From assembly GCF_013122565.1 (NCBI RefSeq), contig NZ_CP053258.1: DNA of 64,000 nucleotides; one strand, given 5' to 3'. How positions within the stretch are numbered: position 1 is the first letter of the stretch; each line of letters opens with the position of its first letter. This DNA is from Escherichia coli. GTDB taxonomy: Bacteria; Pseudomonadota; Gammaproteobacteria; Enterobacterales; Enterobacteriaceae. The position numbers and the translations under genes were made by a program. Shown here one piece after another: positions 60,105-60,237 of this stretch. The notes below the pieces were generated by a model. That model saw only the letters and a list, made by a program, of their open reading frames with translations. It was not told the origin of the DNA and ran no database searches.

Positions 60105-60137
60105 GATGCTCTCCCAAATATGAAATCTCTTGCTGGC

Positions 60138-60155
60138 ATTACAAGAATCATGCCA
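60138..60155 (-). promoter_or_regulatory. Sigma54 promoter of pspG
   Basis: Minus-strand TGGCATGATTCTTGTAAT; same TGGCA-N-TTGT pattern as the pspA promoter, about 30 bp upstream of the pspG ATG. Confidence 0.6.
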
Positions 60156-60237
60156 AAAATAATCTATTGATTTAACAGCAAAACGCCCCGCGAATTTGCG
60201 CAGGGCGTGGTGAATTTGACTACTTTTTGGTGAAAAG

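Follow-up and report, generated by a model that had tools for sequence, protein, structure and literature searches.

What drives transcription of pspG in this strain of Escherichia coli? The gene follows dusA on the same strand, and its transcripts could come from a sigma-54 promoter in the spacer, from a sigma-70 promoter elsewhere or from dusA read-through. An earlier note, made from the sequence alone, had proposed a sigma-54 promoter of the pspA type and PspF-dependent stress induction. The analysis described here leads to the same reading. With a probability of about 0.95, the spacer is the pspG regulatory region and contains a sigma-54 promoter that depends on an enhancer and belongs to the phage-shock (Psp) regulon.

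The dusA-pspG locus

The window, meaning the whole 64-kb stretch of DNA that was analysed, is a natural chromosome segment of E. coli that includes dnaB, qorA, pspG and dusA. The genes and gene boundaries that define the locus are as follows.

57215-58630, minus strand, dnaB
qorA, plus strand
59862-60104, minus strand, pspG coding sequence, 80 aa (Pfam PF09583 Phageshock_PspG, E = 3.4e-25)
60104-60102, minus strand, pspG ATG
60105-60237, 133 bp, exactly the dusA-pspG spacer
60240-60238, minus strand, dusA stop codon TAA
60238-61281, minus strand, dusA, mechanical open reading frame coordinates from a TTG start

The dusA open reading frame is 1,044 nt long versus 1,038 nt in the MG1655 annotation, where the start is placed slightly later. 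A 601-nt query over the region found a match in 5,425 of 5,426 complete E. coli genomes. The RefSeq annotation beneath these matches is pspG and dusA, with pspG present in 5,425 E. coli genomes. An Rfam scan of 59500-60400 returned sub-threshold chance matches only, and no structured RNA family accounts for the region. Neither pspF nor rpoN is inside the 64-kb window; in MG1655 (K-12), pspF adjoins pspA.

The window comes from a natural non-K-12 E. coli, because its identity to MG1655 over the whole length is only ~98%, with several indels. The 511 nt compared around pspG differ from MG1655 at three consecutive positions, a pattern that hinted at engineered or K-12-derived DNA. This origin was rejected in view of the window-wide divergence and the indels, and the three-base allele also occurs in 44 natural genomes.

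Comparison with MG1655 revealed further differences in the window. Two genes at 54502-56060 (minus strand) lie between alr and tyrB and are absent there in MG1655; one encodes a PnuC-type nicotinamide mononucleotide transporter (PF04973, E = 1e-48), and the product of the other is 342 aa long, contains an AAA_28 domain and appears to be NadR-like. A 193-aa open reading frame without a Pfam match (46158-46739, plus strand) lies in a ~1-kb insertion between ssb and yjcB. Positions 1-12947 are mostly non-collinear with the MG1655 region that comes after alsK-yjcS in the expected gene order. At 23348-24623, ~1.3 kb stands in place of ~0.3 kb of MG1655; the adjoining sequence has multiple copies in the MG1655 gltP-yjcO spacer, and no tandem repeats were found in a search of 23000-25000.

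On the 3' side of pspG, positions 59695-59805 (minus strand) correspond to the sRNA gene pspH (b4758) of the MG1655 annotation, which is located in the pspG 3' UTR. The stretch is identical to MG1655 where compared, down to 59750. PspH, an Hfq-bound sponge of Spot 42 (Spf), may be transcribed from a promoter of its own (Melamed et al. 2016, PMC5145812). A perfect hairpin with a 9-bp stem and T runs on both strands (59704-59726) is located between the converging pspG/pspH and qorA genes and looks like a bidirectional terminator.

The sigma-54 core promoter

A pattern scan located a sigma-54 element in the spacer. All features are on the minus strand, and element positions are counted from the predicted transcription start at G60129.

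60155-60141, minus strand, sigma-54 motif TGGCATGATTCTTGT, -26 to -12, 51 nt upstream of the pspG ATG
60140-60156, minus strand, sigma-54 core promoter TTGGCATGATTCTTGTA (17-mer), from the pattern scan and ChIP-seq identity
60129, minus strand, predicted transcription start G60129, 24 nt downstream of the second G of the -24 element
60115-60109, minus strand, Shine-Dalgarno sequence GGGAGAG of pspG, read from the sequence

The TGGCA/TTGT motif that the earlier note had placed upstream of pspG is present within 60105-60237, as the longer string TGGCATGATTCTTGTAAT at 60155-60138 on the minus strand. The 17-mer is identical to OS40, the sigma-54 ChIP-seq site assigned to pspG in MG1655 (Bonocora et al. 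2015, PMC4591121). OS40 carries a 'C' flag in the EcoCyc column of the table in that paper, like other established sigma-54 promoters. In the same study, sigma-54 overexpression raised five genes that have an intergenic site upstream, pspG being one of them, and PspF is named as the regulator of pspG.

The GG of the -24 element is at -25/-24 (60154-60153). The element fits the sigma-54 register TGGCAC-N5-TTGCW, with a -12 dinucleotide of GT (60142-60141) in place of the usual GC. The likeness to pspA that had been claimed extends to this base, and the MG1655 pspA element TTGGCACGCAAATTGTA has the same unusual T for C at -12. TTGT is found in only pspA, pspG and ygeW among 42 intergenic sense sigma-54 ChIP-seq sites (PMC4591121). 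The GT at -12 of pspA is conserved (Huvet et al. 2011, PMC3041696), and the alignment of orthologues shows that it is likewise conserved at pspG. A sigma-54 ChIP-chip site, TGGCATGATTTTTGTAAG, was reported at Salmonella Typhimurium pspG (STM4244; Samuels et al. 2013, PMC3844500), and it has the same GT at -12.

The -24/-12 register predicts a start at 60129, which would give a 25-nt 5' UTR. This predicted leader equals the distance of 25 given for pspG in PMC4591121, and the same start rule applied to pspA reproduces the distance of 41 given there. Strand and distance both fit pspG, with the promoter on the pspG strand followed by the predicted leader and then GGGAGAG. Either GGGAGAG or GGGGAGAG precedes the ATG in four of the five orthologue upstream sequences printed; the other, L083, has CAGGAG.

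The pattern TGGCAY-N5-TTGY is not significant by itself. It matched once in 64 kb compared with 1.0 match expected, and at least one match was obtained in 56 of 100 shuffles. These counts are compatible with TGGCA-N6-TTGT being a chance match, in which case pspG would be transcribed from a sigma-70 promoter elsewhere or by read-through from dusA. The significance of the motif therefore comes from its position and conservation. PspG-encoding loci were fetched from 80 genomes, one per species, from genera including Escherichia, Citrobacter, Salmonella, Enterobacter, Klebsiella, Raoultella, Kluyvera, Leclercia, Yersinia, Rahnella and Brenneria. In 75 of the 80 species genomes, the coding strand carries the strict motif at the orthologous position, no more than 230 nt ahead of pspG, and the motif was found nowhere else in these loci (zero matches in ~505 kb of strand-bases). 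The TGG, the CA, the G after CAY and the TTG of the element are invariant in the 75 aligned sequences. Per-column information in this alignment is highest at the regulatory elements and near zero in the hairpin loop and the short linkers. Lack of conservation was one of the grounds that the earlier note had named for discarding its promoter; the motif is retained in these genomes, and the IHF site and the enhancer are also conserved across the Enterobacterales.

A scan of 59650-60350 found no sigma-70-like promoter on the pspG strand, and a covarying terminator, described below, stands between dusA and pspG. These two observations, the conserved position of the motif and its identity to a published ChIP-seq site leave a chance match so improbable that it is effectively refuted. 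A sigma-54 promoter is the preferred source of pspG transcripts.

The five genomes that depart from the strict motif are L030, L056, L065, L074 and L083. Four of them, from four other genera, keep TGGCAC-N5-TTG with A or G at the last position, giving TTGA or TTGG, not TTGT. The exception is L030 (Citrobacter werkmanii NBRC 105721), which has TTTGTCATGTTTCTTGTA ~50 nt upstream of pspG. In this sequence the essential -24 GG is replaced by GT, through either a sequencing error or a change that would inactivate the promoter.

The IHF site and the candidate PspF enhancer

The check proposed for the sigma-54 reading was a search for enhancer-like sites and an IHF site farther upstream and a comparison with the pspA promoter. 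Both kinds of site were found in the interval that had been named, 60160-60237, and the two promoters agree in the GT at -12 and the UAS spacing and nearly agree in the IHF distance.

60172-60160, minus strand, IHF site AATCAATAGATTA, -43 to -31, perfect match to the consensus WATCAANNNNTTR
60235-60207, minus strand, conserved 29-nt block, candidate PspF enhancer, -106 to -78
TTCACCAC, minus strand, core inside this block
60222-60207, minus strand, proximal PspF UAS TAGTCAAATTCACCAC, -93 to -78, an imperfect palindrome and highly conserved
60235-60228, minus strand, distal conserved half-site TTTCACCA, immediately downstream of the dusA stop codon
60234-60228, minus strand, distal TTCACCA core, -105 to -99

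The IHF consensus matches the window six times versus 2.6 expected. The CA and TA positions of the site at pspG are invariant in the 75 sequences. By sequence match, the consensus lies between the UAS and the -24 element, as in a psp-type promoter. The pspA IHF site AATCAAAAAGATA is at -45 to -33, an almost equal distance from the promoter.

A 29-nt weight matrix that spans both enhancer elements was built solely from the block in the pspG orthologues. The top score in the MG1655 pspF-pspA locus was 10.95 at positions 220-248 of that locus (L003), which are -119 to -91 of pspA. This segment falls within the pspA enhancer, which we take to extend from -126 to -80 according to Dworkin, Jovanovic and Model. 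A background of ~262,000 positions, taken from both strands of the window and of 66 kb of MG1655, yielded only the pspG sites above 10.95, and the next best score was -9.9. The matrix aligns collinearly with pspA UAS II and UAS I, with an equal 20-bp spacing.

A 16-nt matrix made from the proximal element of the pspG orthologues alone gave a consistent result. It ranked TGATGAAATTCGCCAC (13.8, pspA UAS II) first and TAGTGTAATTCGCTAA (5.7, UAS I) second in the pspF-pspA locus. The proximal pspG UAS scores 29.2 forward and 13.4 reverse on its own matrix. Matches on the reverse strand fall at the same places and show the sites to be imperfect palindromes, the form that a helix-turn-helix dimer would be expected to bind. 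Three positions in the 64-kb window score 8 or more, and two of these are the pspG site on its two strands. The UAS therefore resembles the PspF sites of pspA, as a psp-type promoter would require, through matrix matches that are specific to the UAS II/UAS I region.

The location of the 29-nt block raises the alternative that it is a 3'-end element of dusA or the site of another regulator. The block abuts the dusA stop codon, and the last two UAS bases are the first two bases of the terminator stem. Gene order does not separate the two interpretations, because dusA precedes pspG in 79 of the 80 loci, including those of Yersinia, Rahnella and Brenneria, and conservation of the UAS cannot be uncoupled from dusA by loss of synteny. 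The specificity of the block matrix points the other way. Its only other strong match is the pspA enhancer region with the same 20-bp internal spacing, and Mehta et al. 2013 (PMC3709507), citing Lloyd et al. 2004, state that PspF binds the UASs of pspA and pspG. A role in dusA or for another regulator is very improbable, and the block is read as the candidate PspF enhancer.

The same paper gives pspA two UASs and ~100-fold induction, and pspG one UAS and ~20-fold induction. The TTCRCYA core is repeated at 20-bp spacing in the PspF sites of both promoters. At pspA the repeats belong to two UASs 20 bp apart, each a full palindrome (-126 to -111 and -106 to -91), whereas pspG has one full palindrome and a half-site 20 bp upstream, which fits the published count of two UASs versus one. 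The pspG enhancer is ~13 bp nearer to its promoter than the pspA enhancer.

The distal TTCACCA is located 20 bp upstream of an identical heptamer in the proximal UAS. The half-site is non-coding yet conserved, with 1.0-2.0 bits per column, and it is as conserved as the accepted UAS. It is possible, though somewhat doubtful, that the half-site is a second PspF contact that sets affinity, in which case the pspG enhancer would be bipartite and not 'one UAS'.

The dusA terminator and its loop allele

One further element lies in the spacer, between the enhancer and the IHF site.

60208-60180, minus strand, dusA intrinsic terminator, hairpin and T run, -79 to -51

The terminator consists of a 10-bp stem, a 6-nt loop and a T run, with a minimum free energy of -19.1 kcal/mol, and a terminator scan called 60208-60183 as terminator-like. 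Covariation supports the fold across species. Pairing is retained in 97.2% of cells, and eight of the ten pairs have compensatory changes; sliding the 3' partner by 1-3 columns as a control reduced pairing to 36-60%. Because this covarying terminator separates the genes and the pspG strand has no sigma-70-like promoter in the interval scanned, pspG appears to be insulated from dusA and to rely on the sigma-54 promoter.

The three bases that distinguish this strain from MG1655 lie in the terminator loop, which is GCGCAAATTCGCG here and GCGCACCGTCGCG in K-12. The loop allele is AAT at 60196-60194 (minus strand) versus CCG in K-12, or CAAATT versus CACCGT. It was typed with a 41-nt loop-centred probe in 5,426 complete genomes, 44 of which carry the AAT allele and 5,163 the K-12 type. 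The AAT allele creates CAAATTCGC, in which the UAS core CAAATTC recurs, exactly 20 bp downstream of the proximal UAS.

This copy could in principle be a third PspF-like core that alters pspG induction. Its CAAATTC heptamer is identical to the proximal UAS core, its 20-bp period is that found between the pspA UASs, and the UAS matrix score in this register rises from -35.7 with the K-12 allele to -11.4. Real sites nevertheless score far higher (5.7 to 29.2), because the copy lacks the flanking invariant positions. Conservation across the 75 species is lower in the loop than anywhere else in the region, GAATTC is also present in some Lelliottia and Enterobacter loops, hairpin stability is unchanged by the allele, and the allele is rare. 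A contribution of CAAATTCGC to PspF control is quite unlikely. On this sequence evidence the AAT allele appears to be neutral, and it might be a templated mutation copied from the UAS by way of the shared flanks CA...TC.

Discussion

The promoter identified here is the already known pspG promoter, and in that respect the finding is ordinary. To our knowledge, E. coli has only one other promoter that PspF activates, and the characterisation of the pspG promoter dates from 2004. The first description is reportedly that of Lloyd et al. 2004 (J Biol Chem 279:55707). According to PMC3709507 and PMC4591121, K-12 pspG is induced by stress in a PspF- and IHF-dependent manner and repressed by PspA; both papers cite Lloyd et al. 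2004 for PpspG, the promoter of K-12 pspG (yjbO), which is the same locus. Identity to K-12 runs from 156 nt upstream of the ATG through the gene and the 3' UTR, and it includes the -24/-12 element, the IHF site, the UAS and the terminator stem; the three terminator loop bases are the sole difference from K-12 PpspG. The published PspF result would carry over to this strain because the 511 nt around pspG equal MG1655 save for these three bases. The PspF-dependent interpretation given in the earlier note is supported, and nothing in the data contradicts a sigma-54/PspF explanation.

The layout extends beyond E. coli. Two other Salmonella enterica subspecies (L019 and L036) have the same block, terminator and IHF layout, and their promoter is ~85 nt from the ATG versus 51 nt here. 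The two E. coli spacers differ in what else they contain. The pspA spacer adjoins the divergent pspF and presumably holds the pspF promoter, whereas the pspG spacer contains the dusA terminator.

In sigma-54 systems the polymerase forms a closed complex at the -24/-12 element, and ATP hydrolysis by an activator opens the promoter. At pspG, sigma-54 RNA polymerase would bind TGGCATGATTCTTGT (-26 to -12) in a closed complex that does not open unaided. PspF would bind the palindromic UAS TAGTCAAATTCACCAC (-93 to -78), possibly aided by the TTCACCA half-site 20 bp upstream, and a bend introduced by IHF at AATCAATAGATTA (-43 to -31) would bring it to the polymerase, so that ATP hydrolysis by PspF could open the promoter. 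PspA would keep PspF inactive without membrane stress, and stress would free PspF. The dusA terminator hairpin inside the enhancer-promoter loop would stop read-through from dusA, and pspG expression would therefore depend on the sigma-54 promoter. In this model, the present analysis supplies the elements with their positions, conservation and specific likeness to pspA, and sigma-54 occupancy, PspF binding and regulation by IHF and PspA are taken from the K-12 literature.

The distal half-site and the placement of a terminator within the enhancer loop might go beyond the published account. If the bipartite reading is true, the same DNA would act as RNA terminator, looping spacer and part of the UAS edge. 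Otherwise the finding has little significance beyond correct annotation. The cross-species alignment shows a sigma-54 core, an IHF site, the dusA terminator and a PspF enhancer packed into 133 bp, and with these elements the strain should be able to induce pspG under inner-membrane stress, as K-12 does.
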